From assembly GCA_040414485.1 (NCBI GenBank), contig JBEDUK010000010.1:30147-94146 (forward strand): a stretch of 64,000 nt of DNA, given 5' to 3'. Source of the DNA: Actinomycetota bacterium (GTDB lineage Bacteria > Actinomycetota > UBA4738). The notes below the pieces were generated by a model. That model did no database searches. It saw nothing but the letters and a program-made list of their open reading frames with translations, and had not been told where the DNA came from. Made by a program: the position numbers and the translations under genes. Of the stretch, positions 266-27,719 are shown one piece after another; position 1 is the stretch's first letter; every line of letters starts with the position of its first letter.

Positions 266-2206
266 TCATTCGGGGGCGCCGGCGCGCGTGGTGCCCGCCT
301 CCGATCCGGCGGCGCCGCCGGCGGGTTGCCCCCGACCGTCACGAGCCGAGCGCCGGAGCAGGCGAAGCTTGACCACCTTGACGGCGATGGCGAGCGACAG
401 CCAATCGTCGTGTTCGAGATCGAGGCCGGTGATCTGCTCGATGCGGGAGAGCCGCTGCCGCAGCGTGTTCGGGTGGATGAACAGCGTCCGCGAGCTGCCC
501 ACCACGTTGCCGCGGCCGTCGAGGTAGCCCTCGAGCGTCCACAGCAGCTGCGTCCCGCGCCGGACGTCGTAGTCGGCCAGCCGCTCCAGCGCGCGCTGAT
601 GGCCGTCGCGCATCCCCGTTTCGTTCGCCAGGACGTACTTGTAGGGCCCGAGATCCTCGTAGGAGAACACGCCGGGTCCGCCGCGGATCAGCGCGCCGAC
701 CTCGGCGGCGGCGAGCGCCTCGTCGAAGCCGACGGCGAAGGAGGACACGCCCCGGCACGGGTTCGACAGGCCGACGGCCACCGGCGATCCCTCGACGACC
801 CCGGCGACGTCCGAGGCCAGCCGCCGGACGACGTCCGCGGGGTCGCCTCCGTCGCCCGGGGAGAGGCGGATGATCGCGCGGAGCGACGATTCGCCCTGGT
901 CGAACAGTGCCCCCGGGACCGCCGAGGCGAGCTGCGGTTCGAGCTTGGCCGCCACCCTGCCCCACGCGTCGAGGCCGCGTGCCGCGTCGTCCGCGGCGCC
1001 CGACCGGCGGCCCCCTCGCTTCGACGTCGCACCGTTCGAACACGGCCGGGCGCGGAGGACCACGTGGGGGACGTCCAGGTCGCAGCCGAGCCGCCATGCG
1101 GCCCGTTCGATGTCCTCGCGCGGCTCGCCCCGCGCGAGGGCCTCGAAGAACTCCTTGACCAGGCTGCCCTCCTTCAGACGTTCGATCATCTGATGCTGCT
1201 TGAGGGCCACGGCCACGTGGGACGCGACGGCCGTCAGGACCGTCTCGACATCCCTGGACGGCGTGGCGGCGGAAACCGCGAGCACGCCGAGGCGCTCCTC
1301 TCCCACGGCGAGCGGCGCGAACAGCGGGATCCCGGCGGCGCGATCTCCCCACAGCGCCTCGGCGAGCGCCCGGGCCTCCTCGGGCCCCGGGCGGGACGCC
1401 AGCGCGTCCATCCAGAGCCGGCGCGTGTCGAGCGCTGCGGCGGTGCGCCGAGGATCCGCCGCGCGAAGCACGAGCCGCTCGTCCGCGTCGAGCAGCAGCA
1501 CCTCGCAGCGTTCGGCATCCAGCAGCGACCGGCAGTCCCGGACGACCATGTCCAGCAGGTCGTCCACGCCGGCCGTGGACGCGATCCGCTGCGCCAGGCG
1601 CGAGAGGTCGGTCAGGAGCGCGACGCGCTCGGTGGCCTCCTCGTAGAGGCGCGCGTTCTCCACGGCACCTGCGACGAGCGACGCGGTGTGCTCCAGGAAA
1701 TCGAGGTCCTCGCGGGCGAACTCGTGCGGCGCCTCGGCGTGGAGGTTCACCACGCCGATCACGTCGCCCCCGCGGGCGAAGATCGGCACCGACACGAGTG
1801 ACTGGAAGCGCTCCTCCTCGAATTCGGGGAAGTACAGGACCCGCGGGTCCTGCAGGGCGTTCTCCTTGATGAAGGCGCTCCGGCGTGTCCGGGCGACCCA
1901 GCCCCCGAGGCCTTCGCCGATCGCCATGCTCGCCTTGCCGGCCAGGTGCGCGTACGGCGCCGACGCGCACCGGAGCACCAGGCGGCCTTCCTGGACGAAG
2001 AAGATCAGGCAGGCGTGGCAGTCCGTCGCCTCGGTGACGATGCGGACGATGCCGCGGAGGATGGTCTCGAGGTCCGGACCGGACCCGATCGTCTGGACGA
2101 TCTCGTAGAGATAGGCCGCCTCGTCGGGGACGCGCCGGACGGCGGTCAGCTGCCTCGCCCGCGCACCCCTTGTGTCCCCACGGCCCCGCGGGCCAGCGGT
2201 CTCCAT
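266..2206 (-). CDS. PucR-family transcriptional regulator with tandem GAF domains
   Basis: 646-aa ORF with two GAF-like regions (GDVIGVVNLH..., GVLAVSAA...) and a C-terminal PucR-type HTH (TLFIHPNTLRQRLSRIEQITGLDL). Exact start uncertain. Confidence 0.7.
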   Translation of the reverse strand: METAGPRGRGDTRGARARQLTAVRRVPDEAAYLYEIVQTIGSGPDLETILRGIVRIVTEATDCHACLIFFVQEGRLVLRCASAPYAHLAGKASMAIGEGLGGWVARTRRSAFIKENALQDPRVLYFPEFEEERFQSLVSVPIFARGGDVIGVVNLHAEAPHEFAREDLDFLEHTASLVAGAVENARLYEEATERVALLTDLSRLAQRIASTAGVDDLLDMVVRDCRSLLDAERCEVLLLDADERLVLRAADPRRTAAALDTRRLWMDALASRPGPEEARALAEALWGDRAAGIPLFAPLAVGEERLGVLAVSAATPSRDVETVLTAVASHVAVALKQHQMIERLKEGSLVKEFFEALARGEPREDIERAAWRLGCDLDVPHVVLRARPCSNGATSKRGGRRSGAADDAARGLDAWGRVAAKLEPQLASAVPGALFDQGESSLRAIIRLSPGDGGDPADVVRRLASDVAGVVEGSPVAVGLSNPCRGVSSFAVGFDEALAAAEVGALIRGGPGVFSYEDLGPYKYVLANETGMRDGHQRALERLADYDVRRGTQLLWTLEGYLDGRGNVVGSSRTLFIHPNTLRQRLSRIEQITGLDLEHDDWLSLAIAVKVVKLRLLRRSARDGRGQPAGGAAGSEAGTTRAGAPE

Positions 2207-3174: not shown

Positions 3175-3339
3175 CGACGCATCGCCGGCATCGTATCCCA
3201 GCTGCCCGCTGCCGGTGGGCCCGTCATGTGTGTTCCGCACACACCTGGCAGCTCGGACGAGATGGTCCCGCCAGTTGCTTCCGCAAAGGGTCAGTGCTAT
3301 ACCGAGCGCCAATCATCGGGGGGAGCAGAGGGAGGTCGA

Positions 3340-4861
3340 GGTGGCCGAGGCCGTCATCGAAGAACGGCAGCTGCTGAAGTCGCTTCACTGGTACGACGGC
3401 TTCGTCATCGCCCTCTGTAACCCGGGCTTCCTCATTGCGAACCTCGGGTTCACGCTCGCCTCGATCGGGGCGAAGGGTTCGATCATCCTCTGGGGAATTG
3501 CGGCCACGGTCGGGCTCCTCCAGAACTGGGTTTACTCCGAATCGGCGGCCATGTTCCCAGACAAGCCGGGCGGCATCGCGATGTACGCCCACGAGGGCTG
3601 GCGGAAGCACTTCAACCTGTTCGGACCGATCGCGGCCTTCGGTTACTGGATCGGCTGGTCGGTCGTGCTTTCGATCAACGGGTACCTGATCGGAGGATTG
3701 ATCACCGCCGAATGGTTCCAGAGCGCCAAGCTCGGCGGGGCGCACCCGAGCGCGGACGGCGGATACTTCAGCCTCGGGCCGGTCGACATCGGCTTGCCGC
3801 ATCTGATCGGCATCGCGATCATCGTCATCGTCTGGCTCTTCAACATCTACGGCGTCAAGCCGTCGCTTGCGGTCGGCTACATCACGGGCATCCTGCTGAT
3901 GATCCCGCTGGCCATCTTCATCATCGTTCCGTACTTCACGGGCGACTGGCATGCCTCGAACATCACATACACGCCGGTACCCGGGTACAGCAATCTGTCG
4001 GTCGCGCTGATGTGGCTGTTCATCATGTGCTGGTCGGCGTACGGCATCGAAGTCTGTGCCAGTTTCGCTCCCGAGTATCACGACACGAAACGAGATACGG
4101 CGCTGGCTCTTCGAACGTCAGCGGCGTTCTCGCTCGCCGTGTATGTCCTGCTGCCGCTGGGGATCGGCGGGCTCGGACTCAAGGTCGACGCGTCGAACTC
4201 GTACGGGCCCTATTACGTGGAGGCGTTCAACAAGGTCGTAGGCAGCGGTCTTTCGAAGGTGGCGCTGATCCTTCTCATCGCCAGCCTCATCCTGTCAATG
4301 AATTCGGCGACTGCCGATGGCGGCCGCGCGCTGTACGGGATCGCGCGCGATGACATGACGACGAAGTTCCTCTACCGGCTCAACCGGTTCCACGTGCCCG
4401 GACGCGGAATGACCGTGGACATGGTCGTGAACGTCCTGCTGATCCTGTTCGTCGGCAACAACCTCGCGATCCTGTACATGTCGAACATCGGGTACGTGTT
4501 CTGCCACGTGCTGGCGCTGTCGGCCTTCCTCCTCCTACGCCGCGAACGGCCGAACTGGCCACGCGTGATCAAGGTGGGACCCGTCTGGGTCGTGATCGCC
4601 GCCATCCTCTGCGCGTACAACGCGTTGCTGCTGTTCTGGGGCGTCACGCAGTACAAGCTCGCGGGCGTGCTCGGCGGATACAAGGCCAGCGGCTATCCGT
4701 TCTGGATCGGCATCGGGATCCTTGTGCTGGCGGTGCTGCTGTTCTTCTACCGGCGCGTCGTCGAGGACAAGAAGCCGATCACCTTCCGCGACAATGACGT
4801 CCCGACCGTACCGAGCGAAGAGCAGATGCGGCTGCTGCACCAGGAAGAGGTTCCTGTCTAG
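3340..4861 (+). CDS. APC-superfamily amino acid / amine permease
   Basis: About 12 predicted TM segments and typical APC N-terminus (GFVIALCNPGFLIANLGFTLASIGAKGSIILWG...). GTG start at 3340, just after the convergent upstream gene. The N-terminal 800 nt of the ORF in the track is a GC-artefact. Confidence 0.8.
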
Positions 4862-5046: not shown

Positions 5047-6453
5047 ATGGCGGACAAGCAGTGGGGGGCTGAGCCCTTCTGGGGCTTGGGCTACGAATGG
5101 GATCCCGACTGGGTGCTCACCGACCGGCAGAAGGAACTTCGCAGCACGCTGATCGACCTGTGCGAGCAGGAGATGCGGGCGAACGCGAAGCGTTCGGACG
5201 ACGAGCTGCTCTTCCCCCGCCGGAACCTGGAGCTGCTCGGCGAGCACGGGTTCCTGGCCCTCACCGTCCCGCAGGAATTCGGTGGGCTGGGCGAGAACCA
5301 CGTCGCCTACTCCATGGTCTGCGAGACGATCGCCCGCTACGGATGCGCCTCCACCGCCATGTGCTACGTCATGCACGTCGGTGCCGTGAACGCGATCATG
5401 CTCCGTGCGACCGACGAGCTGATCGACAAGTACATCCGGCCGCTGAACTCCGGGAAGATCGGGACGCTATCGTATTCAGACCCGGAGACGGGGTCGCATT
5501 TCTGGTACCCGATCTCCTCCGGGGCCGTCGCTGAGAACGGCGGCTACCGTGTGCGGAAGAAGGCCTCGTGGACCACGTCGGCCGGGTTCGCCGACTTCTA
5601 TGTGGTCCAGACCACGTCGCCCGACTTCAAGGGCTACGACGACCTCTCGGTGTTCGTCATCGACGGCGCCGACGCTCAGGCGCAGCCTTCGCTGTGGGAC
5701 GCGCTCGGGCTTCGCGGAAATCAGTCAGGCCCCCTTACCATCGACAACGTCTCGATCCCCGGATCGCAACTGGTCGGCCCGACCGGCGACGGCGCGGCGT
5801 CGAACGACGAATCGGTCGACCCGTGGTTCCTGGTCGGGTCGTCGTCGGTCTGGAACGGCATCGCGATGGGGGCGATCGACATCGCCAAGCGCCACACGAC
5901 CCGCAAGCGCCACGTGGACGTCGGCCTTCGTGTCGCCGACTACCCGACCATCCAGGACTACGTGGGCGAGGCTGTCATGGACACGAACGCTTCGCGGCTG
6001 TTCGTCATGTCGGTGGCGCAGGCCATGGACAAGGAGACCGAGAACAACACCAAGCGCCTCTCCCCCGGCGAGTTCGCGCGCGCGAACTTCCTGCACTGGG
6101 CCTGGCAGATCAAGTTCGAGGCCGCGAAGAACGTCGCGCACGTGGTCGACAAGATGCTCCACGCGTGCGGCGGCAGCGGCTACAAGCGCGACATGGAACT
6201 GGAACGCTACCTGCGTGACGCGAAGGCGGGCTGGGTCATGGGCCCGACGAACGAGGTGCTGAGGCAGTTCGTCGGCAAGGCGGTGCTGCTCGGGTTCGAC
6301 TCGCTCGATTACTGGAACCAGACGTTCAACCGGCGCGCCGTGGAGAACGAGACGAAGAAGCTCGAGCCCGGTGCGAAGCGGGAGCTTGCGGAGCAGCTGA
6401 TCAAGGAGGCCGAGGAAGCCGAGTCAAAGGCCGCCCCGGCCCCCACCGGATAG
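5047..6453 (+). CDS. acyl-CoA dehydrogenase family protein
   Basis: 468 aa. ACAD N-terminal, middle and C-terminal signatures (LELLGEHGFLALTVPQEFGGLG, GSHFW..., C-terminal YxxGG...ER). Confidence 0.85.
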   Translation: MADKQWGAEPFWGLGYEWDPDWVLTDRQKELRSTLIDLCEQEMRANAKRSDDELLFPRRNLELLGEHGFLALTVPQEFGGLGENHVAYSMVCETIARYGCASTAMCYVMHVGAVNAIMLRATDELIDKYIRPLNSGKIGTLSYSDPETGSHFWYPISSGAVAENGGYRVRKKASWTTSAGFADFYVVQTTSPDFKGYDDLSVFVIDGADAQAQPSLWDALGLRGNQSGPLTIDNVSIPGSQLVGPTGDGAASNDESVDPWFLVGSSSVWNGIAMGAIDIAKRHTTRKRHVDVGLRVADYPTIQDYVGEAVMDTNASRLFVMSVAQAMDKETENNTKRLSPGEFARANFLHWAWQIKFEAAKNVAHVVDKMLHACGGSGYKRDMELERYLRDAKAGWVMGPTNEVLRQFVGKAVLLGFDSLDYWNQTFNRRAVENETKKLEPGAKRELAEQLIKEAEEAESKAAPAPTG

Positions 6454-6484: not shown

Positions 6485-8833
6485 ATGGTTCTCTCCGCAG
6501 ACCGACCGCGGTTGCTCCTTCCGGGGCTGAAGCCGCCGGACCCGTTCCTGGAGACGTATCTGGTCCGGCCGGGCGGCGCCACCGTGGTGAAGCTGCGCGA
6601 GGGCGACCGTCTCACCGTCCGCGACCGTGACGGGGGCGCAGTCGTCGAGGTCAGCGCGCTTGCGCCCGATGGAACCGACGATGGCGACGCGCTCGGCATC
6701 ACCACCGAGGCCCCCGCCGAGACACTTCGTTCTCTTGCCGTTGCCGATTCGGACCGGGCCGGCGCGGTCGTTGAGGCCCTTGCGGCTCTTGGACTGAAGC
6801 CGGACCAGGCAACAGCGGCGCGCTTGTTCGGCGAATGGTCGCCGCCGGGCTCTTCGGAGTCGTTCCTGGCGCGACGCGACGCCGTCTGCGTGATCGCCCA
6901 ACCACTGTCGCCTCCGGTCGTCGAGGGCGGCACTCCCCAGTCGGACCTCATCGTCGAGGTTCGCCGCATGATCGCCCGGACGCCTGCGGGCGAGGGCCCC
7001 GAACTTCCGCCCCCGCTGGCGGACGCGCGCCTCGACTTCCGCGTGGACCGCGCCACCGCCCTCTCCTACGAGGTGAAGGCCGGCGAATACATTCAGGTCA
7101 TCGACGTCGAAGGCCGGCAGTGCTCGGACTTCCTGGCATTCCACGGCCACCGTCTGCAGGAGGGCCTCGAACGCGGGCTGGACGCCACCGTGACCAGGAC
7201 GCTCATGGGCAACGCCTACCCGACCCCAGGTCTGTACGGCAAGTTCTACGACCAGGACATGAACCCGCTGGTCGAGGTGGTGCGAGACACGGTGGGGCGC
7301 CACGACACCTTCGCGCTGGCCTGCACCTCGAAGTACTACGAGGACATGGGCTACCCCGGCCATGTGAACTGCACGGACAACTTCAACGGGCAACTGGAGT
7401 CGTACGCCATCGCCGCGCGCAAGGGGTGGCCGGCGCTGAACTTCTTCTTCAACACGACCTTCAGCGGGGACAACATCCTGGTCACCGACGAGCCGTGGTC
7501 GCGGCCCGGCGACTACGTGCTCCTCAGGGCGCTCACGGATCTGGTCTGCGCGTCCTCGGCGTGCCCCGACGACGTCGACCCGGCGAACGCGTGGGATCCC
7601 ACCGACATCCACGTCCGCGTGTACCCCGCGACGGAGACGTTCTCCGTCGCCATCGCCCACCGCGTGACGCCCGACGCAGAGCCACGCCTCACACGGGAGA
7701 CGGGATTCACGCCGAAATTGCGCGAATTGACGTCCCGGTTCACCGACTATCGCGGGTACTGGCTCCCGACCGGCTTCGACGACCAGGGCTCACTGGATGA
7801 GTACTGGGCGTGCCGCGAGCGTGCCGTCGTGATGGACCTTTCGCCGCTTCGGAAGTTCGAGGTGCTCGGGCCGGATGCCGAGGCGCTGTTGCAGGCCACG
7901 ATGACACGGGACATCCGGCGCCTGTCCGTCGGGCAGGTCGTGTACACGGCGATGTGCAACGACACCGGCGGGATGATCGACGACGGGACGGTCTTCCGGC
8001 TGGGCGCCGACAACTTCCGGTTCGTCGGCGGCGACGAATACGACGGGATCTGGTTGCGTGAACAGGCATCGCGCCTCGACCTGCGCGCCTGGGTGCGGCC
8101 GTCCACCGACCAGCTCCACAACCTGGCCGTGCAGGGGCCGCGCTCCTGCGATCTGCTGGCGCCGCTGATCTGGACCGCGCCGACGCAGACGCCGTTCGAC
8201 AAGCTGACCTGGTTCCGTTTCAGCGTCGCCCGGATCGGCGGTGCCCAGGGCATCCCGATCGTGGTGTCCCGAACCGGGTACACGGGCGAGCTCGGGTACG
8301 AGATCTGGTGCCATCCGAAGGACGCGGGCGCCGTCTGGGATGCGATCTGGGAGGCCGGCCGCGATCACGGCCTGCGACCGCTCGGGCTCGACGCGCTGGA
8401 CATGGTGCGCATCGAAGCCGGGCTGATCTTCGCCGGGTACGAGTTCGACGACCAGATCGACCCGTTCGAGGCGGGCATCGGCTTCACGGTGGGACTCGCC
8501 ACGACGGACGACGACTTCGTCGGGCGCACCGCTTTGGTGGAACGGAAGGCGCACCCGCAGCGCGAGCTGGTCGGCCTCGAGCTCGAGGGCAACGAACCCG
8601 CGGCGCACGGCGACTGCGTGCATGTCGGCCGCCAGCAGGTCGGGGTGATCACCAGCGGCACCCGTTCGCCGATCCTCGCGAAGAACGTCGCGCTGTGCCG
8701 GATGGCCGTCCAGCACGCGGGGCTCGGCACCGAGGTCGAGGTCGGCAAGCTCGACAGCCACCAGAAGCGGATTCCGGCGACCGTCGTGCGGTTCCCCTTC
8801 TACGACCCGGAGAAGGCCCGGCCCCGCTCGTAG
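6485..8833 (+). CDS. fusion protein: N-terminal DUF1989 (urea-carboxylase-associated family) + C-terminal GcvT-like aminomethyltransferase (folate-binding) domain
   Basis: The N-terminal half contains DUF1989 hallmarks (GRHDTFALACTSKYYEDMGYPGHVNCTDNFN...NFFFNT). The C-terminal half is GCV_T-like (YWACRERAVVMDLSPLRKFEVLGPDAEALL ... SRTGYTGELGYEIWC ... GLIFAGYEFD). 32 bp downstream of the ACAD gene. Confidence 0.8.
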   Translation: MVLSADRPRLLLPGLKPPDPFLETYLVRPGGATVVKLREGDRLTVRDRDGGAVVEVSALAPDGTDDGDALGITTEAPAETLRSLAVADSDRAGAVVEALAALGLKPDQATAARLFGEWSPPGSSESFLARRDAVCVIAQPLSPPVVEGGTPQSDLIVEVRRMIARTPAGEGPELPPPLADARLDFRVDRATALSYEVKAGEYIQVIDVEGRQCSDFLAFHGHRLQEGLERGLDATVTRTLMGNAYPTPGLYGKFYDQDMNPLVEVVRDTVGRHDTFALACTSKYYEDMGYPGHVNCTDNFNGQLESYAIAARKGWPALNFFFNTTFSGDNILVTDEPWSRPGDYVLLRALTDLVCASSACPDDVDPANAWDPTDIHVRVYPATETFSVAIAHRVTPDAEPRLTRETGFTPKLRELTSRFTDYRGYWLPTGFDDQGSLDEYWACRERAVVMDLSPLRKFEVLGPDAEALLQATMTRDIRRLSVGQVVYTAMCNDTGGMIDDGTVFRLGADNFRFVGGDEYDGIWLREQASRLDLRAWVRPSTDQLHNLAVQGPRSCDLLAPLIWTAPTQTPFDKLTWFRFSVARIGGAQGIPIVVSRTGYTGELGYEIWCHPKDAGAVWDAIWEAGRDHGLRPLGLDALDMVRIEAGLIFAGYEFDDQIDPFEAGIGFTVGLATTDDDFVGRTALVERKAHPQRELVGLELEGNEPAAHGDCVHVGRQQVGVITSGTRSPILAKNVALCRMAVQHAGLGTEVEVGKLDSHQKRIPATVVRFPFYDPEKARPRS

Positions 8834-9272: not shown

Positions 9273-9601
9273 GGATGTCCTCCTTGGGATCGTCGCCGGC
9301 GACGATCCGGTCAGAGGGAATTCGTCGCGACTGGGCCGAGCCACTGCGCGTCGGGGATCCGTGGAGGTATCCGCGCAATTGACGCGGCCTGCTCTGCGGT
9401 TGTCCGTCTTCGTGGCGCGCACGCGTGGATCCAAGGACCCGGTGGTCGACTGTTTCGCGGATGCGCGGAACCCGGCAATATGTGCGGGGATCAACCGAGG
9501 CTAACAGACACTCGCGGATTCGCCAGCGCCGTGCCCGCCACCCATGGGACCGGCCGTGTCGCCCTCCCGCTAGCATCTGCGTGAGCCGAAGGGGGGCCGG
9601 G

Positions 9602-10456
9602 ATGGATCGGTTCGATGGGAACCAGGTCGAGCGGTTCCAGTGCGATGGGTTCCTGATCGTGGAAGAGGGGTTCGTTCCCGAGCGGACGCTGGAGCGGCTG
9701 CGCGAACGCTTCAAGCGGGTGTTCGACGGCGACTACGAGACCGGCATCAAGCCCGACGAGGTGAACTGGGTGCGCGGCCGGGACCGCGATGACGTGACGC
9801 GGCAGGTCTGCAACGGCTGGCGCGCCGATGATGTCATCGCCGCGCAGGTGCTCTCCGAACGGACCGGCCGGCTCGTCTCGCAGCTGATGGGCTGGCGCGG
9901 TGCGCGGATCCTGCAGGACAACATGCTGTGGAAGCCACCGGGGACGAAGTCGATCGGCATGCACCAGGACGGCTCATACGCGGACTACCTGGTGCCGCCG
10001 GTCATGACCACGTGCTGGATCGCCCTGGACGACACACAGGCCGGCGCGGGCACGCTCGAGTACGTACGAGGGTCGCACCTGTGGCCGAAGGCCCCGCCGG
10101 TTCGATCACAGTTCCACGCGCCGGAGGACTGGCTCGAAGGGCTTCGCGCCTCCGCGCCGCCCGGCGAGGAGGTCGAGATCGTCCCCGTGGTGGTGAAGGC
10201 CGGCGGGTGCTCGTTTCATCACAATCTCACCTGGCACGGCAGCGCCTCGAATACGAGCGCCGACGTCACCCGCCGGGCGCTCGTCTCACATCTGCTGGCC
10301 GTGGAGACGCGGTTCCATCCGGCGAACGTGGACCTGATCTATTCGCGGTATCGACGTCGGGCCGACCTGTCCATGGACGAGTCGTTCTTCCCCGTCCTGT
10401 GGTCCGAGGACGGCGGACGGACGCCCTGGCTCAAGGGTCTGCAGACGATCGCCTGA
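9602..10456 (+). CDS. phytanoyl-CoA dioxygenase (PhyH) family Fe(II)/2OG oxygenase
   Basis: PhyH-like motifs including the HQD triad region (GMHQDGSY) and WHGS. ATG at 9602. Confidence 0.8.
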   Translation: MDRFDGNQVERFQCDGFLIVEEGFVPERTLERLRERFKRVFDGDYETGIKPDEVNWVRGRDRDDVTRQVCNGWRADDVIAAQVLSERTGRLVSQLMGWRGARILQDNMLWKPPGTKSIGMHQDGSYADYLVPPVMTTCWIALDDTQAGAGTLEYVRGSHLWPKAPPVRSQFHAPEDWLEGLRASAPPGEEVEIVPVVVKAGGCSFHHNLTWHGSASNTSADVTRRALVSHLLAVETRFHPANVDLIYSRYRRRADLSMDESFFPVLWSEDGGRTPWLKGLQTIA

Positions 10457-10472
10457 AGGCGCCTGCCGATCG

Positions 10473-11584: not shown

Positions 11585-12493
11585 TCACCCGAACGTGGGG
11601 TCCGGGACCCTGCGCTCGGGATCGAAGAGGCCGGCCTCGCTGGCGACGTACTGGTCACGATCGACGATCCTCCAGCCCGATCTGATCAGCGGGACGGTCG
11701 CCGGATGCGGGCCCGGAAGGGACATGCCCAGTCGCGTGACGCCGCGTTCCGCGGCGTGGGAGAACACGGCGATCAGCGCCTCGAGCGACGTCGCCGGTTC
11801 CACCTCCGGGCCGACCTGGAGTGATGCGATCCACCACACCTCCTCGTCCAGCGGCGGGTCGTCGGTGAGGTACGCGTAGCCGATCGGACGGCCGGCGCGC
11901 ACGATTTCCAGCGGCACGGCGTGACGAAGCCGTGTTCCCCAGTACGCGTGGTCCTCCGGGCGGAAGACTCCGCCCCACGATCGCTCCAGGTCGGCAAGAG
12001 CGGAAGGCTGGACGTCCGGTTCGATGGTCACCGCAAGGTTCTTGTCCTGCGATGCCGCGCCGGGATCGCCGGTCACGTACAGGCTCGGCCATCGCGGAGC
12101 CATGCCGAACCGGACGTACAAGGGCAGCGCGTTCGGGTGGGCGGAGGAGAATGTCTGCCGTGGCCAGTGGTCGCCGAGCACCGCCGCGAGCACACGGGCG
12201 CCGATCCCATGGCCGTGCCAGTTCGGATCCACGAACAGATCGGAGACCATGGCGACACCCCCGCGGATCACCGTGCCACCCATCGCGACGATCTCGCCGC
12301 CGCTCGTCTCGGCGACCGCCATGCGGCCGGTCGCCAGCTCGTGTTCCAGGTATCGGAGGCGATCAGGATCGGCCGGCGGCGGTTCGCCCCGGTGGTCGCA
12401 ACGCCACGTCACGGCGAACGCAGCAGGCAGGTCCTGCGCGGTGGCGGCGCGGACCCCGACGACCTCGGCGGCGCCGGCGGCCGGGGTCACGAT
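11585..12493 (-). CDS. GNAT-family N-acetyltransferase with ~150-aa C-terminal extension
   Basis: GNAT motif A (VSDLFVDPNWHGHGIGARVLAAVL). Lies in the lower part of a 661-aa artefact ORF. The start is approximate and overlaps the stop of the upstream gene, which suggests translational coupling. Confidence 0.5.
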   Translation of the reverse strand: MVTPAAGAAEVVGVRAATAQDLPAAFAVTWRCDHRGEPPPADPDRLRYLEHELATGRMAVAETSGGEIVAMGGTVIRGGVAMVSDLFVDPNWHGHGIGARVLAAVLGDHWPRQTFSSAHPNALPLYVRFGMAPRWPSLYVTGDPGAASQDKNLAVTIEPDVQPSALADLERSWGGVFRPEDHAYWGTRLRHAVPLEIVRAGRPIGYAYLTDDPPLDEEVWWIASLQVGPEVEPATSLEALIAVFSHAAERGVTRLGMSLPGPHPATVPLIRSGWRIVDRDQYVASEAGLFDPERRVPDPTFG

Positions 12494-13488
12494 TCGCGGA
12501 GTCGCGCCGCGACCGTCTCGAGCATGGCCCATGCCACGTCCGGGTCGGCCGCGAGGGTCTCGCGGAGCGTCTGGCGCGACACCGTCAGTGTTCGCACCGG
12601 CGTCTCGGCGATCACGTCGGCCATACGGGGGCCGCCGGACAGGACCGACACCTCGCCGAAGAAGTCGCCCTGGTGCAGGGTCGCGATCGGCCTGCCGGCT
12701 CGTTCGACCCGGACCGTGCCCTCGAGCAACAGGAACAGGATGTCGCCCGATTCGCCCTCGCCCACGACGGGCTCGCCGGCGCCGAATCGGCGCTCCTCGC
12801 CGCGAGCCAGCACGGCCTGCTGAAGGTCGGGCGAGAGTCCGGAGAAGACCGACACGGCGGCGAGCGGAAGGCGTTCGTACTGGCCGGCATGGAACAGCAG
12901 CGGCCGGCCCTCGCCGTAGCGTGCGTATTCGACCTGCCCCAGGAACAGCGAATGGTCGCCGCCCCAGTACGACCGGACGACGCGCGCGACGACGTTCGCC
13001 AGGGCGCCGTCCACGAGCGGCGTGTCGTGGATGGAGGCGAACCGGTACTCGGGCGCGCCGCCCTGCGCCCGTCCCGCGAAGTGATCTGAGAGCGCGCTCT
13101 GTTCGGAGGACAGGACGCTGACGCCGAAGCGCCGGCCCTCGTGGAGCAGCGCGTGCATCCGCGCGCGGCGGTCGACGCTGATCGCGACCAGCGGCGGCTT
13201 GAGCGACACGGACATGAACGCGTTCGCGGTCATGCCGTGGACCTGATCGCCGACCTCCACGGTGATGACCGTGACGCCGGTGGCGAACTTGCCGAGCGTG
13301 CGGCGGAACTCGAGCGCCGCGTCCGTGACCGCTTCGGCACCGGTCGCGACCTCGAGCGGCGTCGGTGGAGCGACCTCCTCCCATGGCACCTCCCCAATCC
13401 CGTCGGGCCCACCGGTGACGAAGACGCCGCCGCGAGGAACCTCGAACTCGGCGACGGGCGGCAGGTCGTTCTCTGACATGTCGGGCAC
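12487..13488 (-). CDS. flavin reductase-like domain protein fused to a C-terminal cyclic-nucleotide-binding (CAP_ED) domain
   Basis: The N-terminal part is HpaC/flavin-reductase-like (VTVITVEVGDQVHGMTANAFMSVSLKPPLVAISV). The C-terminal part is cNMP-binding (ILFLLLEGTVRVERAGRPIATLHQGDFFGEVSVL). GTG start. Confidence 0.75.
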   Translation of the reverse strand: MPDMSENDLPPVAEFEVPRGGVFVTGGPDGIGEVPWEEVAPPTPLEVATGAEAVTDAALEFRRTLGKFATGVTVITVEVGDQVHGMTANAFMSVSLKPPLVAISVDRRARMHALLHEGRRFGVSVLSSEQSALSDHFAGRAQGGAPEYRFASIHDTPLVDGALANVVARVVRSYWGGDHSLFLGQVEYARYGEGRPLLFHAGQYERLPLAAVSVFSGLSPDLQQAVLARGEERRFGAGEPVVGEGESGDILFLLLEGTVRVERAGRPIATLHQGDFFGEVSVLSGGPRMADVIAETPVRTLTVSRQTLRETLAADPDVAWAMLETVAARLRES

Positions 13489-14949: not shown

Positions 14950-16290
14950 TCAGGACCAGGGGAACGGCGAGTGGCTCACGGGGTGCAGCCTGCCTTCGGC
15001 GTAACGGCTGAACCGGAACGGGTCCAGAAGCGATTGCCGCTCCCCCATCAGCTCCTTCGCCACCAGCGCCCCGACCCCGATCATCTTGTAGCCGTGGTTC
15101 GAGTCGGCGACCACGTGGACGTTGTCGACGAACGTGTCGAAGACCGGGAACGAATCCGGCGTGAACGCGCCGATGCCGCCGCTCGGGGCCTTGTGATACA
15201 CGCCCCGCTTCCCCTCGAACCGCTTCTGGCAGTGCGCGAGCGCGGAGGTCCACATGCGTTCGAAGTCCTCCGTCACGACGTAGTCTTTGGACAGCGGCCC
15301 GTAGGGATCGACCTTGACGTCGTCGGCGGGCAGCGGAACCGTCCACGGCGCCGAGCCGCCCTGCACGCCGTCGAAGTTGAAGTCCGGCTTGTAGTAGATG
15401 CCCCACAGCTCGCCGGTGACCAGCGAGCCGTCGGCGTCGTCGTAGAGCGGCGCGTCGGTGTCCACGTGGATCACCGGCGGCATCCGCCCGTCGTTGGTCT
15501 GGAGATAGTTGGGATCGACGCCGAGCGTCCCCTCCGTGAGGCACCAGTACGTCCACATCGGCCGGTCGTAGGTCTCGCCGTCGCGGCCCATGACGGGGAT
15601 CACGCCGGGCAGGTCCAGCATGTGCCAGAAGTCCCGGACCCACGGGCCGGCGGCGACCACGACCGCGTCGCACGCGATGTCGCCCTGGTCGGTCACGACG
15701 CCGGTGACTGCCCCGCTCGCGTCGCGGTCGAATCCGGCCACGCGAACGGGAGACAGAACCTGGACCCCGAGCGCCCGGCCCTTCTCTGCGAGGCCCGCCA
15801 TGGAGGGCATGTTCTCGGCGTAGCCGCCCCGCTTCTCGTGCAGCACGACCGAGATGTTCTTCGCCTGCCAGTCATGGAACAGATTCTGCATGTAGAGGTG
15901 GCAGTCGGTCTCGCCTTCGACCAGGACTGACTCGTAGCCGATGGCCTGCTGCTGCTCGTGGATCGAAACCACATCCTCGTGCATCACCGCGGGCGCGAGC
16001 TGCATGTAGCCGACCGGGTGGTAGTGGAACGCGGCCGGATCCGACTCCCAGATCGCGACGCTGTGCGCCATCAGCTCTCGCATGGCCGGCTGGAAGTAGT
16101 TGTTCCGAACCACCCCGCACGCCAGGCCCGACGGGCCGGCGCCGATGCCCGTCTTGTCGAGGACGATCACGTCCGCACCGGACCCCGTGCCGCGCGCCTC
16201 CAATTCCTTCGCCAGGTGCCACGCGGTCGACAGGCCGTGGACGCCCGCGCCGATGACCACGTACCGGGCGCTCGACAGAACCGAAGCCAT
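14950..16290 (-). CDS. FAD-dependent oxidoreductase (DAO family; sarcosine/glycine-oxidase-like)
   Basis: N-terminal GxGxxG (YVVIGAGVHGLSTAWHLA) and DAO-fold motifs. It is the last gene of the fhs-gmaS-mgs operon, 30 bp after the VOC gene. Confidence 0.8.
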   Translation of the reverse strand: MASVLSSARYVVIGAGVHGLSTAWHLAKELEARGTGSGADVIVLDKTGIGAGPSGLACGVVRNNYFQPAMRELMAHSVAIWESDPAAFHYHPVGYMQLAPAVMHEDVVSIHEQQQAIGYESVLVEGETDCHLYMQNLFHDWQAKNISVVLHEKRGGYAENMPSMAGLAEKGRALGVQVLSPVRVAGFDRDASGAVTGVVTDQGDIACDAVVVAAGPWVRDFWHMLDLPGVIPVMGRDGETYDRPMWTYWCLTEGTLGVDPNYLQTNDGRMPPVIHVDTDAPLYDDADGSLVTGELWGIYYKPDFNFDGVQGGSAPWTVPLPADDVKVDPYGPLSKDYVVTEDFERMWTSALAHCQKRFEGKRGVYHKAPSGGIGAFTPDSFPVFDTFVDNVHVVADSNHGYKMIGVGALVAKELMGERQSLLDPFRFSRYAEGRLHPVSHSPFPWS

Positions 16291-17178: not shown

Positions 17179-18582
17179 TCATCCCTGGCCCTGGTCGGCC
17201 AGGTACTTCTCGAGCATGCCCTTGATCTCGCCGAGCGTGCGATCCTCCGACACGCCCGGGATGTAATCGGTCCCGGCGAGCGGCACCTTGGCCATGGCGG
17301 CAGCCTCGACGGTGAGCGCGCACAGGTCCTCGGGCTCCAGCGAGTGGACGTCTGTCTTCCCGCACGCGCGGGCGAGCATCTGCAGCTCCATGGTCATCGC
17401 GGTGAGGAAGTTGTAGACGCGGTTCGCGGCCTCGTCGACCTTGAGCCGCTTGCGGAGTTCCGGGTCCTGCGTGGCCACGCCGACCGGGCACCGTCCCGTG
17501 TGGCAGTGATAGCACTGGCCGGCGGGCACCCCGACCGTGCCCTCGTAGTCCGTGACGCCGGGGATCTCCTTGTTGCAGTTCAGCGCCATGAGGGCCGAAT
17601 GCCCGATGGCGACCGCCTTCGCGCCGAGCGCCAGGGCCTTGGCGACGTCCGCGCCGTTGCGGATCCCACCGGCAACGACCAGATCGACCTCGTCGGCCAG
17701 CCCGACGTCCTCCAGCGCGCGGCGCGCCTCGGGGATGGCCGCCATCAGCGGGATGCCCGTCTCCTCGGTGGCGATGTGCGGTCCGGCGCCGGTGGAGCCC
17801 TCGGCCCCGTCGAGGTAGATGATGTCCGGCCCGCACTTCGCCGCCATACGAACGTCGTCGTAGACGCGCGCCGCGCCGAGCTTCAACTGGATCGGGATCC
17901 GGTAGTCGGTGGCCTCGCGGATCTCCTGCACCTTCAGCGAAAGGTCGTCGGGGCCGAGCCAGTCCGGATGCCGTGCCGGCGAGCGCTGGTCGATCCCGGC
18001 GGGGAGCGAACGCATCTCCGCGACCTGTTCGGTCACCTTCTGTCCCATCAGGTGGCCGCCGAGCCCGACCTTGCAGCCCTGCCCGATGAAGAACTCGCAT
18101 CCGTCGGCGAGCATCAGGTGATGCGGGTTGAACCCGTACCGGCTCTGGATGCACTGGTAGTACCACTTGATCGACAGGTCCCGTTCGGGCGGGATCATGC
18201 CGCCCTCGCCCGAGCAGGTCGCCGTCCCAGCCATGGACGCCCCCTTCGCCAGGGCCATCTTCGCCTCCAGCGACAGCGCCCCGAACGACATACCGGTGAT
18301 GTAGATCGGGATGTCGAGCTCAAGCGGATTCTTCGCGAACCGCGCGCCGAGGACCGTCTTCGTCTCGCATTTCTCTCTGTAGCCCTCGATCACGAAGCGC
18401 GTGAGCGTACCCGGAAGGAACATCAATTCGTCCCAATGCGGGATCGGCTTGAACATGGAGAAACCGCGCATGCGGTATCGGCCAAGCTCGGCTTTCACGT
18501 GGATGTCGTTGATCACATCCGCCGTGAAGATCTGGCTGCGCCCGAGGACGTTCCTCCTGGTTGGCGCGTCTTCGACGGCCAT
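17179..18582 (-). CDS. mgsC: FMN-binding glutamate-synthase family protein (GltB central domain); N-methylglutamate synthase subunit C-like
   Basis: GltS FMN-domain motifs (IYITGMSFGALS, GEGG, VVAGGIRNGADVAKALALGA) and the Cys cluster for a 3Fe-4S (CYHCHTGRCP). Synteny with GATase-II and GXGXG genes. Confidence 0.8.
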   Translation of the reverse strand: MAVEDAPTRRNVLGRSQIFTADVINDIHVKAELGRYRMRGFSMFKPIPHWDELMFLPGTLTRFVIEGYREKCETKTVLGARFAKNPLELDIPIYITGMSFGALSLEAKMALAKGASMAGTATCSGEGGMIPPERDLSIKWYYQCIQSRYGFNPHHLMLADGCEFFIGQGCKVGLGGHLMGQKVTEQVAEMRSLPAGIDQRSPARHPDWLGPDDLSLKVQEIREATDYRIPIQLKLGAARVYDDVRMAAKCGPDIIYLDGAEGSTGAGPHIATEETGIPLMAAIPEARRALEDVGLADEVDLVVAGGIRNGADVAKALALGAKAVAIGHSALMALNCNKEIPGVTDYEGTVGVPAGQCYHCHTGRCPVGVATQDPELRKRLKVDEAANRVYNFLTAMTMELQMLARACGKTDVHSLEPEDLCALTVEAAAMAKVPLAGTDYIPGVSEDRTLGEIKGMLEKYLADQGQG

Positions 18583-18602
18583 CGGCTGCTCGCCCCCTCT
18601 CC

Positions 18603-19460
18603 CTAGTGGATCACGAGCTTGCGCTCGGATGGCTCGAGGCTGTCGTAGTTGTACAGGACCTTTCCGCACACGAACTTCTGGAACTCGGGCGGCGTGCCCA
18701 GGCCGTAGATGCGGAATTTCCGCTCGATCAATTCGGTGTCGGCGTCGCTCCAGTCGCCGGGGACACAGTCGATCCCGAGCGATTTCACCCTTCCTGCGAC
18801 GTAGATCTCGCCGTCGTACATGGAGTCACCAAGGCCCGGCCCCGCGTCACCGCAGATGATCTGGCGCCCCCGCTGCATCATGAACCCGGTCATGGAACCG
18901 ACGTCGCCGCAGACGACGATCGTGCCGCCCTTCTGATCGATCCCGGTCCGCGCGCCGGCCTGGCCCTTGATCACCAGGTCGCCGCCGCGGAACGCCGCGC
19001 CGGCCAGCGACCCCGCGTTCTTCTCGATCACGACGACTCCGGACATCATGTTCTCGCAGACGGACCAGCCGACCCGGCCGGTGACGGTGATCTCCGGCCC
19101 GTCGATCAGGCCGAGGCCGAAGTATCCGAGCGAGCCTTCGAACCGGATCCTGCAGCGTCGCAGAATGCCGACGCCGATCGAATGCTTCGCACCCGGATTG
19201 AGGACCGTGACGTCGTCGATCCCCTGCTCGTACAGAAGCCAGCGGAGTTCGAGGTTGATCTGGCGGATCGTGAGGCCCGCCGCGTTGAAGGTCGCCTTCG
19301 ACACCGCCTCGTCGATCTCGGAGATCTTCGGGACCTCCGCGATCGGCTCGGCCAGGCCGCGCGCGTCATACGTGATCCGCCGCCCACCGCTCGTTCGTGC
19401 GGGGGCTACGCTCCGCTGCGCTTCGCTACTCGAGCCCCCGAACCCCGTTACCGTGTCCAT
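18603..19460 (-). CDS. mgsB: GXGXG-motif protein (glutamate synthase alpha C-terminal-domain-like); N-methylglutamate synthase subunit B-like
   Basis: Repeated GxGxG motifs (RGGDLVIKGQAGARTGIDQKGGTIVVCGDVGSMTGFMMQRGRQIICGDAGPGLGDSM). ATG at 19460. Confidence 0.8.
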   Translation of the reverse strand: MDTVTGFGGSSSEAQRSVAPARTSGGRRITYDARGLAEPIAEVPKISEIDEAVSKATFNAAGLTIRQINLELRWLLYEQGIDDVTVLNPGAKHSIGVGILRRCRIRFEGSLGYFGLGLIDGPEITVTGRVGWSVCENMMSGVVVIEKNAGSLAGAAFRGGDLVIKGQAGARTGIDQKGGTIVVCGDVGSMTGFMMQRGRQIICGDAGPGLGDSMYDGEIYVAGRVKSLGIDCVPGDWSDADTELIERKFRIYGLGTPPEFQKFVCGKVLYNYDSLEPSERKLVIH

Positions 19461-20377
19461 ACCAGCACCTCGCGCTCGTACGGGTCGTACGTGTCGATCT
19501 CGCGGTCGATGATGGCCCGGATCGCGACCTCCTCGGACGCCATCGCGACCAGGTTGTCGGATTCGTACAGGACCAGCGGCTTCGCGGCCATCTCGTCCTT
19601 GGCCACACCCAACGAGTCGACCGTGACCGCCAGGTACGTGAACACGCCGTCCAGGTCGTCCAGGGACTGTTTCATCGCGGTCTCCAGGTCGTAGCCCTCC
19701 TGGAGCTTCTCGGCCAGGTACACCGCGATGATCTCGGAGTCGCACTCGGACTGGAACCGGTGGCCGCTGCGCTCCAGGCGGCGGCGCCATTGGAAGTAGT
19801 TCGTCAACTGGCCGTTGTGGACCACCGCCACGTCGCTGAACGGGTAGGCCCAGTACGGATGGGCGCCCGAGATGTCGACGTCGGATTCCGTGGCCATCCG
19901 GACGTGCCCGATGCCGTGCGTGCCTCGGAATCCGCCCAGGTTGTACTGCTGCGACACCTCCTCCGCGTCGCCGAGGTCCTTGACGATCTCCAGCGAATGG
20001 CCGAGCGAGAGGACCTCACAGCCGGGGACGTCCTCGATGTAGTCCGCCAGCGCCTTGAGGTCACCGTCGTACCGGACGACCGCCCGGTACGCATAGTCCG
20101 TCTCGCGGTCCACCCGGTCGACGGTGCCGCCGATCTTCGCCAGGCGTGCCTCGACCTCCAGGCGGTGGCGCTCCAGGCGTTCCCTGAACTCGAAGTCCCG
20201 GCGGTCGTTCGCGTCCGCGAGCTTGAAGCGGATCACGACGTGGTCGGACGGCGGCCCGTAGAGCGCGTAGCCGGTCGAGTCAGGCCCGCGGTGCTTCATG
20301 GCCTGGAGCATCGCCGTGATCTCGTTGCCGATCTCGCCCTCGCCGTCGCGATGGATGACGCCCGCGATGCCGCACAT
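19448..20377 (-). CDS. mgsA: class-II glutamine amidotransferase domain protein; N-methylglutamate synthase subunit A-like
   Basis: N-terminal MCGIAGV (Cys2 nucleophile after Met removal) and GATase-2 fold. Its stop overlaps the mgsB start. Confidence 0.8.
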   Translation of the reverse strand: MCGIAGVIHRDGEGEIGNEITAMLQAMKHRGPDSTGYALYGPPSDHVVIRFKLADANDRRDFEFRERLERHRLEVEARLAKIGGTVDRVDRETDYAYRAVVRYDGDLKALADYIEDVPGCEVLSLGHSLEIVKDLGDAEEVSQQYNLGGFRGTHGIGHVRMATESDVDISGAHPYWAYPFSDVAVVHNGQLTNYFQWRRRLERSGHRFQSECDSEIIAVYLAEKLQEGYDLETAMKQSLDDLDGVFTYLAVTVDSLGVAKDEMAAKPLVLYESDNLVAMASEEVAIRAIIDREIDTYDPYEREVLVWTR

Positions 20378-20403
20378 GGCCCGCCCCTTCCTGCCTTCGT
20401 CCC

Positions 20404-21801
20404 TTACGGGAGGATGTCCAAGTACTCCTTGATGTCCCAGTCGCTCACCGTGGAGATGAACCGGATCCATTCGTCCCGCTTGTAGTGCATGAACACGCGG
20501 TACATGTCCCCCGGCATCGCCGACCGCACGACCTCGTCGGCTTCCAGCGCGTCGAGCGCCTCGCCCAGCGTGGTCGGGATCCGTTCGACGGTCTTGCCCT
20601 CGGCGATGGCCTCGTAGATGTTGCGCTCCTCCGGCGGTCCGGGGTCGAGCTTGCGGTCGATGCCGTCGCGCATGACCTTCAGCAGCGCCGCGAACGACAG
20701 ATAGGGGTTCACCGCCGAGTCGACGCTGCGGTACTCGTAGCGGCCGGGCGCGCTGATCCGCAGGGCTGTCGTCCGGTTCTGGAACCCCCAGTCGGCGAAG
20801 ATCGGCGCCCAGAACCCGGCGTCGGCGAACCGGCGGTACGAGTTCACCGTCGGTGCCGTGATGCACGTCAGGGCTCGAAGGTGATCCAGCACGCCGCCGA
20901 TCGCGTACAGACCGACCTGGCCGGGCAGCCGCGGGTTGTCGCCGTCGGGGAGGAACTTGTTCGTGTCGCCCTCCCACAGCGAGATGTTGTGGTGGCACCC
21001 GTTCGCCGACACGCCCATGAACGGCTTCGGCATGAAGCAGGCGAACGCGTTCATCTCGCGACCGACCTGCCGGCAGATCTGGCGGTAGGTGGTCAACCGG
21101 TCCGCGGTGGCTTCGGCCTTGTCGAACATGAAGTTCAGCTCCAACTGGCCGGGCGCGTCCTCGTGGTCCCCCTGGATCATGTCCAGCCCCATCGCCCGGC
21201 CGTACTCCATGACCTTGTGGATGATGGGCTGCAGCTCGGAGAACTGGTCGATGTGGTAGCAGTACGGCTTCGTCTTGCCCTCGACCGACGGCGAGCCGTC
21301 GGGGTTGACCTTCAGCCACATCATCTCGGGCTCGGTGCCGGCCCTCAGGTGCAGGCCGGTCGCGGCCGTGAACTCGTCGTGGATCCGCTTCAGGTTCCCG
21401 CGACAGTCGGAGGTGAGGTAACCCCCACCGTCCTCCTCCTCCTCGCGGCCGCGGAACAGCGTGCAGAACACCCGGGCGGTCTTGCGGTCCCACGGAAGGA
21501 CGCAGAACGTCTCGGGCTCGGGCAGGCCGACCAGCTCACGCGCCTCCGGCCCGTAGCCGATGTACTCGCCGTTGCGGTCGACGAACAGGTTCGCCGTGGA
21601 GCCGTAGACCAGCTGGAACCCCCTGGCGGCGATGTTCTCCCAGTGCGCCGCCGGGATGCCCTTGCCCATGATGCGGCCGGTCACCGACACGAACTGGTAG
21701 TACATGTAGTCGACGCCCTCGGCGTCGATCTGCTTGCGGACCTCCTTGATGGCGTCCGCCCGCCCCTCCTGCGACACGAACCGTTCGAGATCCGACGTCA
21801 C
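20404..21801 (-). CDS. gmaS: glutamine-synthetase family protein, gamma-glutamylmethylamide synthetase (GmaS)-like
   Basis: GS catalytic-domain motifs (beta-grasp N-domain, ...CHHNISLW...). Located directly upstream of mgsABC as in N-methylglutamate-pathway clusters. GTG start with a GGAGGGGGG RBS. Confidence 0.75.
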   Translation of the reverse strand: MTSDLERFVSQEGRADAIKEVRKQIDAEGVDYMYYQFVSVTGRIMGKGIPAAHWENIAARGFQLVYGSTANLFVDRNGEYIGYGPEARELVGLPEPETFCVLPWDRKTARVFCTLFRGREEEEDGGGYLTSDCRGNLKRIHDEFTAATGLHLRAGTEPEMMWLKVNPDGSPSVEGKTKPYCYHIDQFSELQPIIHKVMEYGRAMGLDMIQGDHEDAPGQLELNFMFDKAEATADRLTTYRQICRQVGREMNAFACFMPKPFMGVSANGCHHNISLWEGDTNKFLPDGDNPRLPGQVGLYAIGGVLDHLRALTCITAPTVNSYRRFADAGFWAPIFADWGFQNRTTALRISAPGRYEYRSVDSAVNPYLSFAALLKVMRDGIDRKLDPGPPEERNIYEAIAEGKTVERIPTTLGEALDALEADEVVRSAMPGDMYRVFMHYKRDEWIRFISTVSDWDIKEYLDILP

Positions 21802-21826
21802 CCTCGCCCCCCTCCGACGCGATGTC

Positions 21827-23500: not shown

Positions 23501-23602
23501 GCCACCGCCGGCGTGGGTCCCATGGAGGCGACAGACTACTCCGGCGGCCGGTGCGACGGACGAGTCGCGGCACGTCGGGCCGCCACAACTTCGAACGCCC
23601 CG

Positions 23603-23686
23603 ATGTGTGGGAAGTGGACAGGTCTCGCTCGCCAACCTGCGGGCTGAGGCGCGCGGCGCGCCGGAGGCATGTGTTCGAAGTGGACA
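23603..23686. promoter_or_regulatory. two copies of an 18-bp motif ATGTGTnnGAAGTGGACA in the divergent fhs / soxD intergenic region (candidate operator sites)
   Basis: Copy 1 at 23603-23620 (atgtgtgggaagtggaca). Copy 2 at 23669-23686 (atgtgttcgaagtggaca). 66 bp apart, inside the 328-bp divergent promoter region. Confidence 0.3.
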
Positions 23687-27714: not shown

Positions 27715-27719
27715 GCGGG

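Follow-up and report, generated by a model that had tools for sequence, protein, structure and literature searches.

A probable trimethylamine N-oxide demethylase in a methylated-amine gene neighbourhood of an uncultured actinobacterium

Gene structure, domains and family assignment

We analysed a 64,000-nucleotide stretch of contig JBEDUK010000010.1 (positions 30,147 to 94,146; hereafter the window) from an Actinomycetota bacterium of the lineage UBA4738, and in particular an open reading frame (ORF) at 6485..8833 (+) which very probably encodes trimethylamine N-oxide (TMAO) demethylase (Tdm, EC 4.1.2.32). The full-length ORF of 782 amino acids (aa) opens with an ATG and has a GC3 of 0.89, typical of real genes in this window of ~69 % GC. 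Its start codon lies 31 nt past the end of an ORF with an acyl-CoA dehydrogenase (ACAD)-like product (5047..6453), with a purine-rich, Shine-Dalgarno-like GAAGGGA 10 nt 5′ of the ATG. The predicted product divides as follows, its Pfam domain matches all lying far over the gathering cutoffs.

6485..8833, + strand: tdm, predicted trimethylamine N-oxide demethylase, 782 aa (NCBIfam equivalog NF053776 and PDB 9q59)
6485..7042, + strand: N-terminal degenerate DUF1989-like domain, aa 1-186 (hhalign alignment to the core)
7043..7546, + strand: DUF1989 catalytic core, aa 187-354 (Pfam PF09347, E=4.4e-49)
7127..7570, + strand: span of the active-site residues D215, C280, H293, C296, F322, C360 and D362 (alignment to 9q59)
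7718..8485, + strand: GCV_T folate-binding domain, aa 412-667 (Pfam PF01571, E=2.4e-68)
8561..8806, + strand: GCV_T_C barrel, aa 693-774 (Pfam PF08669, E=1.1e-18)

The position of the ORF and these boundaries bear out a preliminary description of the locus, which had reported a 782-aa fusion of DUF1989 to GCV_T, and the domain search places DUF1989 in the N-terminal half as it had proposed. The active site of the core reaches aa 363, beyond the Pfam bounds, and K777, a contact of the tetrahydrofolate (THF) tail, falls just C-terminal of the GCV_T_C barrel. Residues 1-186 have no Pfam assignment and are collinear with the DUF1989 core in profile-profile alignment (hhalign E=7e-5, against E=0.72 for the same segment aligned to the GcvT half as a control). 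They lack the Zn cysteines, the cysteine-bearing insert being absent from the alignment to the core, and are the least conserved part of the protein, with 33 % identity to the Tdm of Paracoccus and 49 % within the clade. This segment is a degenerate second DUF1989-like domain, in agreement with the finding of such a third domain in Methylocella Tdm (PMC12560246). The N-terminal domain of Tdm has also been described in PMC13619132, and in the Paracoccus enzyme it has a role in assembly and stability (PMC12560246, PMC13619132).

The family assignment rests first on the NCBIfam equivalog NF053776, 'trimethylamine N-oxide demethylase', which the protein matches with 1202.2 bits against a cutoff of 1100 over aa 23-781 (model positions 14-762 of 763). 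The PDB match (E=1e-273, residues 20-782) is to 9q59, 9q5l and 9q5a, whose chains are named trimethylamine N-oxide demethylase and which are cryo-EM structures of Tdm from Paracoccus sp. DMF (eLife 2026; PMC13619132). Identity to the Paracoccus enzyme is 54 % over 758 aligned aa, rising to 62.5 % in the DUF1989 core and 60 % in GCV_T. The protein also has the architecture expected of Tdm, with a degenerate DUF1989-like domain, a DUF1989 core, GCV_T and GCV_T_C on one chain of ~760-790 aa, and the expected genomic context, since gmaS-like, mgsABC-like and soxBAG-like genes, a formate-tetrahydrofolate ligase gene and a tmoP-like permease gene all fall within the window.

The DUF1989 and GcvT fusion is the defining, already published architecture of Tdm and is not new; its description is credited to Zhu et al. 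2014/2016 and Lidbury et al. 2014 (by PMC12560246 and PMC5520151). The preliminary description's suggestion of a novel demethylase thus falls away, a curated equivalog cutoff having been passed by a protein of known architecture, and its view of DUF1989 as a domain of unknown function is superseded by the Zn-dependent TMAO demethylation site known from Paracoccus Tdm. To find it in raw sequence is a re-discovery, the literature already covering the function, structure and formaldehyde channelling of Tdm and an annotation model embodying them.

Scanning a single genome for each species yielded at least 485 Tdm relatives, the best 80 of which (63-78 % identity) formed our neighbourhood sample. 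These 80 are nearly all from Actinomycetota, including Thermoleophilia, Gaiellales, Solirubrobacterales, Pseudonocardia, Streptosporangiaceae and Nocardioidaceae; the occurrence of Tdm in this phylum has already been recorded by a gene survey (PMC12162431).

Conserved residues and the predicted reaction

The HMMER alignment to 9q59 served to locate residues of the Paracoccus enzyme in the window protein, and all ten residues stressed by the Paracoccus study are kept (C280, C296, C360, D215, F322, D362, R475, K777, F577 and F667). In Paracoccus Tdm a 3Cys-Zn2+ site is formed by C285, C301 and C365 in the DUF1989 core, the TMAO oxygen binds Zn, and D220, F327 and D367 shape the pocket, the products being dimethylamine (DMA) and formaldehyde (PMC13619132). 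The corresponding cysteines C280, C296 and C360 (Methylocella C263, C279 and C343) form the predicted Zn site here and are invariant in 67/67 actinobacterial Tdm sequences. D215, F322 and D362 are equivalent to D220, F327 and D367, and H293 to Paracoccus H298 and Methylocella H276; D215, D362 and H293 are invariant among the 67 sequences while residue 322 is F or Y. We considered this F/Y choice as a marker of substrate that might separate ACAD-linked from Tmm-linked tdm genes, and rejected it because it shows no pattern with neighbourhood type.

The GcvT domain of Paracoccus Tdm binds THF near R480, K782, F582 and F672 with a Kd of ~149 nM, and methylene-THF was detected (PMC13619132). The equivalent R475, F577, F667 and K777 are invariant in the actinobacterial clade, save that K777 is gapped in 2/67 sequences, and D500 corresponds to the catalytic Asp of GcvT (T. 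maritima D96), so that the THF-binding residues anticipated in the C-terminal half are found there in their Tdm form. A closed, negatively charged tunnel joins the Zn and THF sites of the Paracoccus enzyme and is known only for 9Q5L (PMC13619132).

On this basis we propose that the window protein acts as the second enzyme of aerobic trimethylamine (TMA) catabolism. TMAO, probably entering through the adjacent APC permease, would bind through its oxygen to the Zn2+ that Cys280, Cys296 and Cys360 of the DUF1989 core coordinate, within a pocket shaped by Asp215, Phe322 and Asp362, and would be converted to DMA and formaldehyde with no net redox change, a reaction of 1:1 stoichiometry demonstrated for the Paracoccus (PMC13619132) and Methylocella (PMC12560246) enzymes. 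The formaldehyde would be retained and pass along an internal tunnel to THF on the C-terminal GcvT domain, there forming 5,10-methylene-THF to feed a neighbouring one-carbon (C1) module of formate-THF ligase and formate dehydrogenase. DMA, after one further demethylation, would enter the gamma-glutamylmethylamide/N-methylglutamate pathway encoded 8-20 kb downstream. Orthology, conserved residues and gene context are the grounds on which the Tdm chemistry, THF binding and tunnel are predicted for the window protein itself. The earlier proposal that the DUF1989 half yields a C1 unit channelled to THF on the GcvT half agrees with the experiments on Paracoccus Tdm (PMC13619132). As a whole the cluster is predicted to be able to take TMAO to DMA and C1-THF, and methylamine onward; FMO-type tmm and a recognisable dmmDABC or dimethylamine monooxygenase were not found in the window.

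A number of points weigh against this assignment. No assay of any actinobacterial Tdm was found in the literature searched, and the window protein is no more than 54 % identical to characterised enzymes as a whole, a figure that drops to 33 % for the N-terminal domain. With no tmm in the window, TMAO would have to come from uptake or from some oxygenase; the missing actinobacterial assay and the unclear source of TMAO in vivo account for our residual doubt. Paracoccus W476, which tethers the N-terminus, is replaced by Ala471, and owing to this replacement the quaternary arrangement may differ from that of Paracoccus. Even in the model enzymes the metal needed may be Zn only or Zn and Fe, an Fe2+ requirement reported for Methylocella Tdm being disputed (PMC13619132). 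Finally, two classical GcvT folate contacts are exchanged, T. maritima Y100 for F504 and R227 for L638. L638 occurs in 67/67 and F504 in 60/67 members of the clade. These replacements were taken to preclude THF binding by Methylocella Tdm (PMC12560246), whereas Paracoccus Tdm, which carries the same two, binds THF with the affinity given above and makes methylene-THF (PMC13619132). A C-terminal domain unable to bind THF was rejected on these grounds; since the replacements are family-wide and an enzyme carrying them binds THF, they are best read as a family trait and not as evidence against function.

Neighbouring genes and the ACAD-fold partner

The genes that surround tdm, and the remaining GcvT-fold genes of the window, are as follows.

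266..2206, - strand: GAF/PucR-type transcriptional regulator (Pfam GAF, GGDEF_2, HTH_30)
2328-2807, - strand: Usp-like protein, conserved divergent gene
2809-3312, - strand: ~130-aa Cys-rich membrane protein with no family match, conserved divergent gene
3335..4861, + strand: APC-family permease, probable TMAO/methylated-amine importer (NF053774, relatives)
5047..6453, + strand: ACAD-fold flavoprotein upstream of tdm (Pfam ACAD N, M and C domains)
9425..10456, + strand: PhyH-family Fe(II)/2-oxoglutarate dioxygenase (Pfam PF05721, E=1.3e-28)
10473-11498, - strand: class I fructose-bisphosphate aldolase, inside the methylated-amine island (Pfam Glycolytic, E=2e-135)
12487..13488, - strand: HpaC/StyB-type flavin reductase fused to a cyclic-nucleotide-binding domain (Pfam Flavin_Reduct and cNMP_binding)
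14950..16290, - strand: DAO-family FAD oxidoreductase, weakly SoxB-like (Pfam DAO, 5.8e-33)
17179..21951, - strand: N-methylglutamate pathway genes (Pfam Glu_synthase, GXGXG, GATase_6/7, Gln-synt_C), comprising the next four
17179-18669, - strand: mgsC (Glu_synthase)
about 18603-19790, - strand: mgsB (GXGXG)
about 19448-20400, - strand: mgsA (GATase)
20404-21951, - strand: gmaS-like (Gln-synt_C)
21827..23824, - strand: formate-tetrahydrofolate ligase, start codon uncertain (Pfam FTHFS, E=1e-241)
23669..28943, + strand: sarcosine-oxidase-like heteromer, probable N-methylglutamate dehydrogenase (Pfam; NCBIfam soxA and soxB matches under cutoffs), comprising the next three
23669-27001, + strand: SoxA-like alpha subunit (GCV_T, 2.6e-74)
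27001-27540, + strand: SoxG-like gamma ORF (partial GCV_T, 9e-12)
27534-28943, + strand: beta subunit (soxB subfamily match under cutoff)
59899-61014, - strand: true GcvT (GCV_T, 8.2e-83), beside lipoamide dehydrogenase

This neighbourhood fits methylated-amine catabolism, the N-methylglutamate pathway genes having been assigned by the scheme in PMC5520151, and a formate dehydrogenase, part of the C1 module, is also encoded in the window. The preliminary count of four GcvT-fold proteins holds, with the SoxA-like, SoxG-like and GcvT proteins besides Tdm. The tdm gene would anchor this part of the window as a catabolic island for methylated amines (TMAO, DMA and monomethylamine (MMA) to C1-THF) in an uncultured high-GC actinobacterium.

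The best NCBIfam model for the APC permease is the Methylocella TMAO permease NF053774 (196 bits, under the cutoff of 690), and it is 72-75 % identical to permeases of related tdm loci from ~aa 263 on. Its longest ORF, 2537-4861 (774 aa), is over-extended, homology setting in at ~aa 252-269 with a probable start at ~3335, and the surplus 5′ part overlaps the two divergent genes at 2328-2807 and 2809-3312. Relatives of these stand beside the permease in related loci, the Usp-like gene in 21 and the Cys-rich gene in 32. The GAF/PucR-type regulator gene lies 5′ of the cluster, and a similar one flanks the cluster of a related locus (L082).

The gene directly upstream of tdm had been described as an acyl-CoA dehydrogenase 32 bp away. 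The adjacency is real (31 nt here) and conserved, the enzyme identity probably is not. The position of the catalytic Glu of MCAD/SCAD type (YEGT in the ACAD 3pfd) reads MGPT, with Gly399, and the IVD/LCAD-type helix-G base position is Trp260, so that both possible catalytic Glu positions are replaced; Gly399, within an invariant GWVMGPTNE, and Trp260 are fixed in 39 orthologues. The protein also falls far under all NCBIfam ACAD equivalog cutoffs (best Rv1679/FadE16, 223 against 600) and carries generic names only in public databases. Since the neighbour is probably not an acyl-CoA dehydrogenase, an acyl-CoA-derived substrate for Tdm, which had been entertained, appears unlikely.

To place its relatives, window proteins were searched by tblastn against the 80 tdm genome loci. 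The ACAD-like gene immediately precedes tdm, on the same strand, in 57/80 loci, or in 44 of the 54 with enough flanking sequence, and its product is 69-88 % identical across classes, higher than Tdm itself. Among metagenome contigs anchored on the ACAD-like protein, tdm starts within 700 nt downstream in 60 of the 61 that could be evaluated, the one exception having a weak match to the Tdm N-terminus at the contig end. Three long ENA contigs show the same ACAD-tdm order, two of which have a short flavin reductase gene that overlaps the tdm stop; the flavin reductase of loci L081 and L082 is a short form of 172-194 aa. In L081 (9418-11756) tdm is called as two ORFs, one of 398 aa with no Pfam match and one of 333 aa with GCV_T, which probably reflects a frameshift or a fault of assembly, not a natural split. 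Two metagenome-assembled genomes labelled 'Bifidobacterium breve' (L053, L055) hold a soil-actinobacterial ACAD, tdm, flavin reductase, PhyH and N-methylglutamate cluster, with a Tdm 65 % identical, and this label looks wrong.

Co-occurrence was counted within 5 kb on either side of tdm in the 54 loci with adequate flanks, the Fisher p values ignoring shared ancestry and being indicative only. A flavin reductase lies near tdm in 27/44 loci with the ACAD-like gene and 0/10 loci without it (p 7e-4), and occurs with PhyH in 23/27 loci (p 7e-9). True FMO-type tmm adjoins tdm in 11 related loci, directly downstream (NF058570, 795 bits against a cutoff of 675), and neither the flavin reductase (0/11, p 3e-4) nor PhyH (0/11, p 4e-4) occurs with it. 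The ACAD-like gene is found together with tmm in five loci, all Pseudonocardia, and Tmm was found in 0/22 metagenome contigs with enough downstream sequence. These patterns suggest that flavin reductase and PhyH belong to an alternative module for an oxidation step of methylated amines.

Gene context and the missing catalytic residue lead us to propose, tentatively and as the simplest if still somewhat improbable reading, that the ACAD-fold protein and the flavin reductase could form a new two-component flavin oxygenase acting on TMA to give TMAO or on DMA to give MMA. The flavin reductase has HpaC/StyB-like NCBIfam matches under their cutoffs, and no ACAD-like or two-component enzyme in TMA or DMA metabolism was found in the literature searched. 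If true, a non-orthologous enzyme would have taken over one step of a nitrogen and C1 pathway of global importance, and Tdm of soil Actinomycetota would not be partnered with the FMO-type Tmm and DmmDABC of proteobacteria. PhyH and DAO-type enzymes are further candidates for unassigned methylated-amine steps. The conserved members of this soil-actinobacterial tdm module (ACAD-fold protein, flavin reductase, PhyH and DAO-type enzyme) are uncharacterised and are the evident candidates for enzymes of TMA oxidation and DMA demethylation, which seem to be missing from these organisms; the linkage of the ACAD-fold gene and its module to tdm may be a new observation.

In 47/80 loci a relative of the DAO-family gene occurs no more than 10 kb from tdm, the gene order in Pseudonocardia and Streptosporangiaceae being tdm, tmm, an iclR-type regulator and DAO. 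For organisms that have no dmmDABC, the DAO-family product is a candidate for a dimethylamine oxidase or dehydrogenase. A conserved 144-aa ORF beside mgsC (16731-17165, - strand), with no Pfam or NCBIfam match, recurs in 28/80 tdm loci at 64-81 % identity and belongs, unannotated, to the N-methylglutamate gene cluster. The probable true start of phyH is an internal Met at about 9602. Between tdm and phyH there is a gap of ~590 nt, against 3-200 nt in relatives. A small ORF in this gap (8868-9494, - strand) has a product with a signal peptide and the motif of an SLT-like lytic transglycosylase, 52 % identical over 88 aa to part of an SLT-domain protein at 43537-44631, and the ORF looks like a local insertion or duplication. 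No regulatory element was found in the gap. Over 4800-10600 a promoter scan returned 0 promoter-like sites and a terminator scan one terminator-like site, inside the ACAD gene and below chance expectation.

No RNA element turned up near tdm when the window was scanned with Rfam. The sole match was a cobalamin riboswitch (RF00174, 53304-53523, - strand, 75.9 bits) 5′ of a gene for a periplasmic binding protein (52204-53232, Peripla_BP_2) that presumably serves B12 uptake. Suf Fe-S assembly genes lie at 37486-41693 and 47094-48506 (- strand), with two SufB/D-type genes at separate places, and the Suf operon includes a gene for a Rieske [2Fe-2S] protein (40019-40345).

Alternative readings and comparison with known systems

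The alternative that survives best, and which we nonetheless regard as improbable, is a Tdm-family paralogue acting on another amine oxide or hydroxylamine made by the linked ACAD-fold oxygenase, such as N,N-dimethylhydroxylamine from DMA or another tertiary amine N-oxide, the Zn-dependent rearrangement being unchanged and formaldehyde still passing to THF. The fixed position of tdm 3′ of an uncharacterised ACAD-fold gene, in the 60/61 contigs and 44/54 loci above, and the failure to find FMO-type tmm or a recognisable dimethylamine monooxygenase in the window would suit it. However, the protein passes an equivalog cutoff trained on true Tdm and keeps every known pocket residue, F or Y at 322 is independent of neighbourhood type, and tdm genes 65-70 % identical adjoin true tmm in Pseudonocardia, Nocardioidaceae and Streptomyces loci, while the nearest model for the permease beside it is that of the TMAO permease.

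A glycine-cleavage T-protein or other GcvT-family enzyme (DmdA-, DMGO- or LigM-like) with an accessory N-terminal domain is very improbable. Strong GCV_T and GCV_T_C matches and the catalytic Asp kept as D500 are what such an enzyme would show, but the scores fall under cutoff for TIGR00528 gcvT (224.6 against 235.85), PRK00389 (NF001567; 264 against 300), NF010093 (165 against 459), DmdA NF009133 (154.4 against 410) and LigM (64 against 580), the folate contacts Y100 and R227 are exchanged in a Tdm-specific way, and a true gcvT lies at 59899-61014.

Stand-alone DUF1989 proteins have been reported as carboxyguanidine deiminase subunits. That the DUF1989 half acts like such urea/guanidine-carboxylase-associated proteins, the GcvT half being incidental, is scarcely credible: there are weak matches to TIGR03424 and TIGR03425 and to a stand-alone DUF1989 structure (3oru, E=1.4e-15), but the former reach only 89.8 against 284.7 and 56.1 against 205.95, no urea/guanidine carboxylase or allophanate hydrolase adjoins tdm, and the full-length Tdm equivalog match accounts for both halves. 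Across the candidate identities GcvT, DmdA, LigM/DesA, SoxA and UAAP, all rejected, NCBIfam scores were under the curated cutoffs and the Tdm equivalog was the one passed.

Paracoccus Tdm (787 aa against 782 aa) has the same three-domain order and identical Zn ligands, substrate/product contacts and THF contacts; it differs in the N-terminal domain (33 % identical) and in W476, which stacks on P14 and is Ala471 here. Its host is an alphaproteobacterium whereas the window host is a high-GC actinobacterium, and unlike the Paracoccus neighbourhood the window has the ACAD-like gene upstream, tmm and dmmDABC not having been found there. Tdm of Methylocella silvestris BL2 (Msil_3603) is the seed of NF053776, the model passed by the window protein, and shares the DUF1989 and GcvT architecture and the Y-to-F and R-to-L replacements in the folate domain. 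Methylocella tdm lies beside tmm, the TMAO permease gene tmoP and dmmDABC (PMC5520151), whereas the window shares only a distant tmoP-like permease.

The C-terminal 380 aa are of the same fold family as GcvT (PDB 1WOO, 1YX2 and 3A8I; E=1e-51 to 1e-55), with the GGxxDD motif and the catalytic Asp. Unlike GcvT, the window protein scores under the GcvT equivalog cutoffs, lacks the folate contacts Y100 and R227 and has an extra 400-aa N-terminal catalytic module; GcvT takes an H-protein-bound aminomethyl group whereas Tdm would take free formaldehyde. Dimethylglycine oxidase/dehydrogenase and the alpha subunit of heterotetrameric sarcosine oxidase (PDB 1PJ5, 4PAB and 2GAG) likewise join a demethylating module to a GcvT-type THF domain that captures C1, although theirs is an FAD-dependent amine oxidase and that of Tdm would be a Zn-dependent, redox-neutral DUF1989 module. 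Stand-alone DUF1989 proteins (PDB 3ORU/3SIY; UAAP1/UAAP2) share the domain family and its three-Cys Zn site but are of ~200-230 aa with no GcvT, and the window protein lies far under the UAAP equivalog cutoffs.

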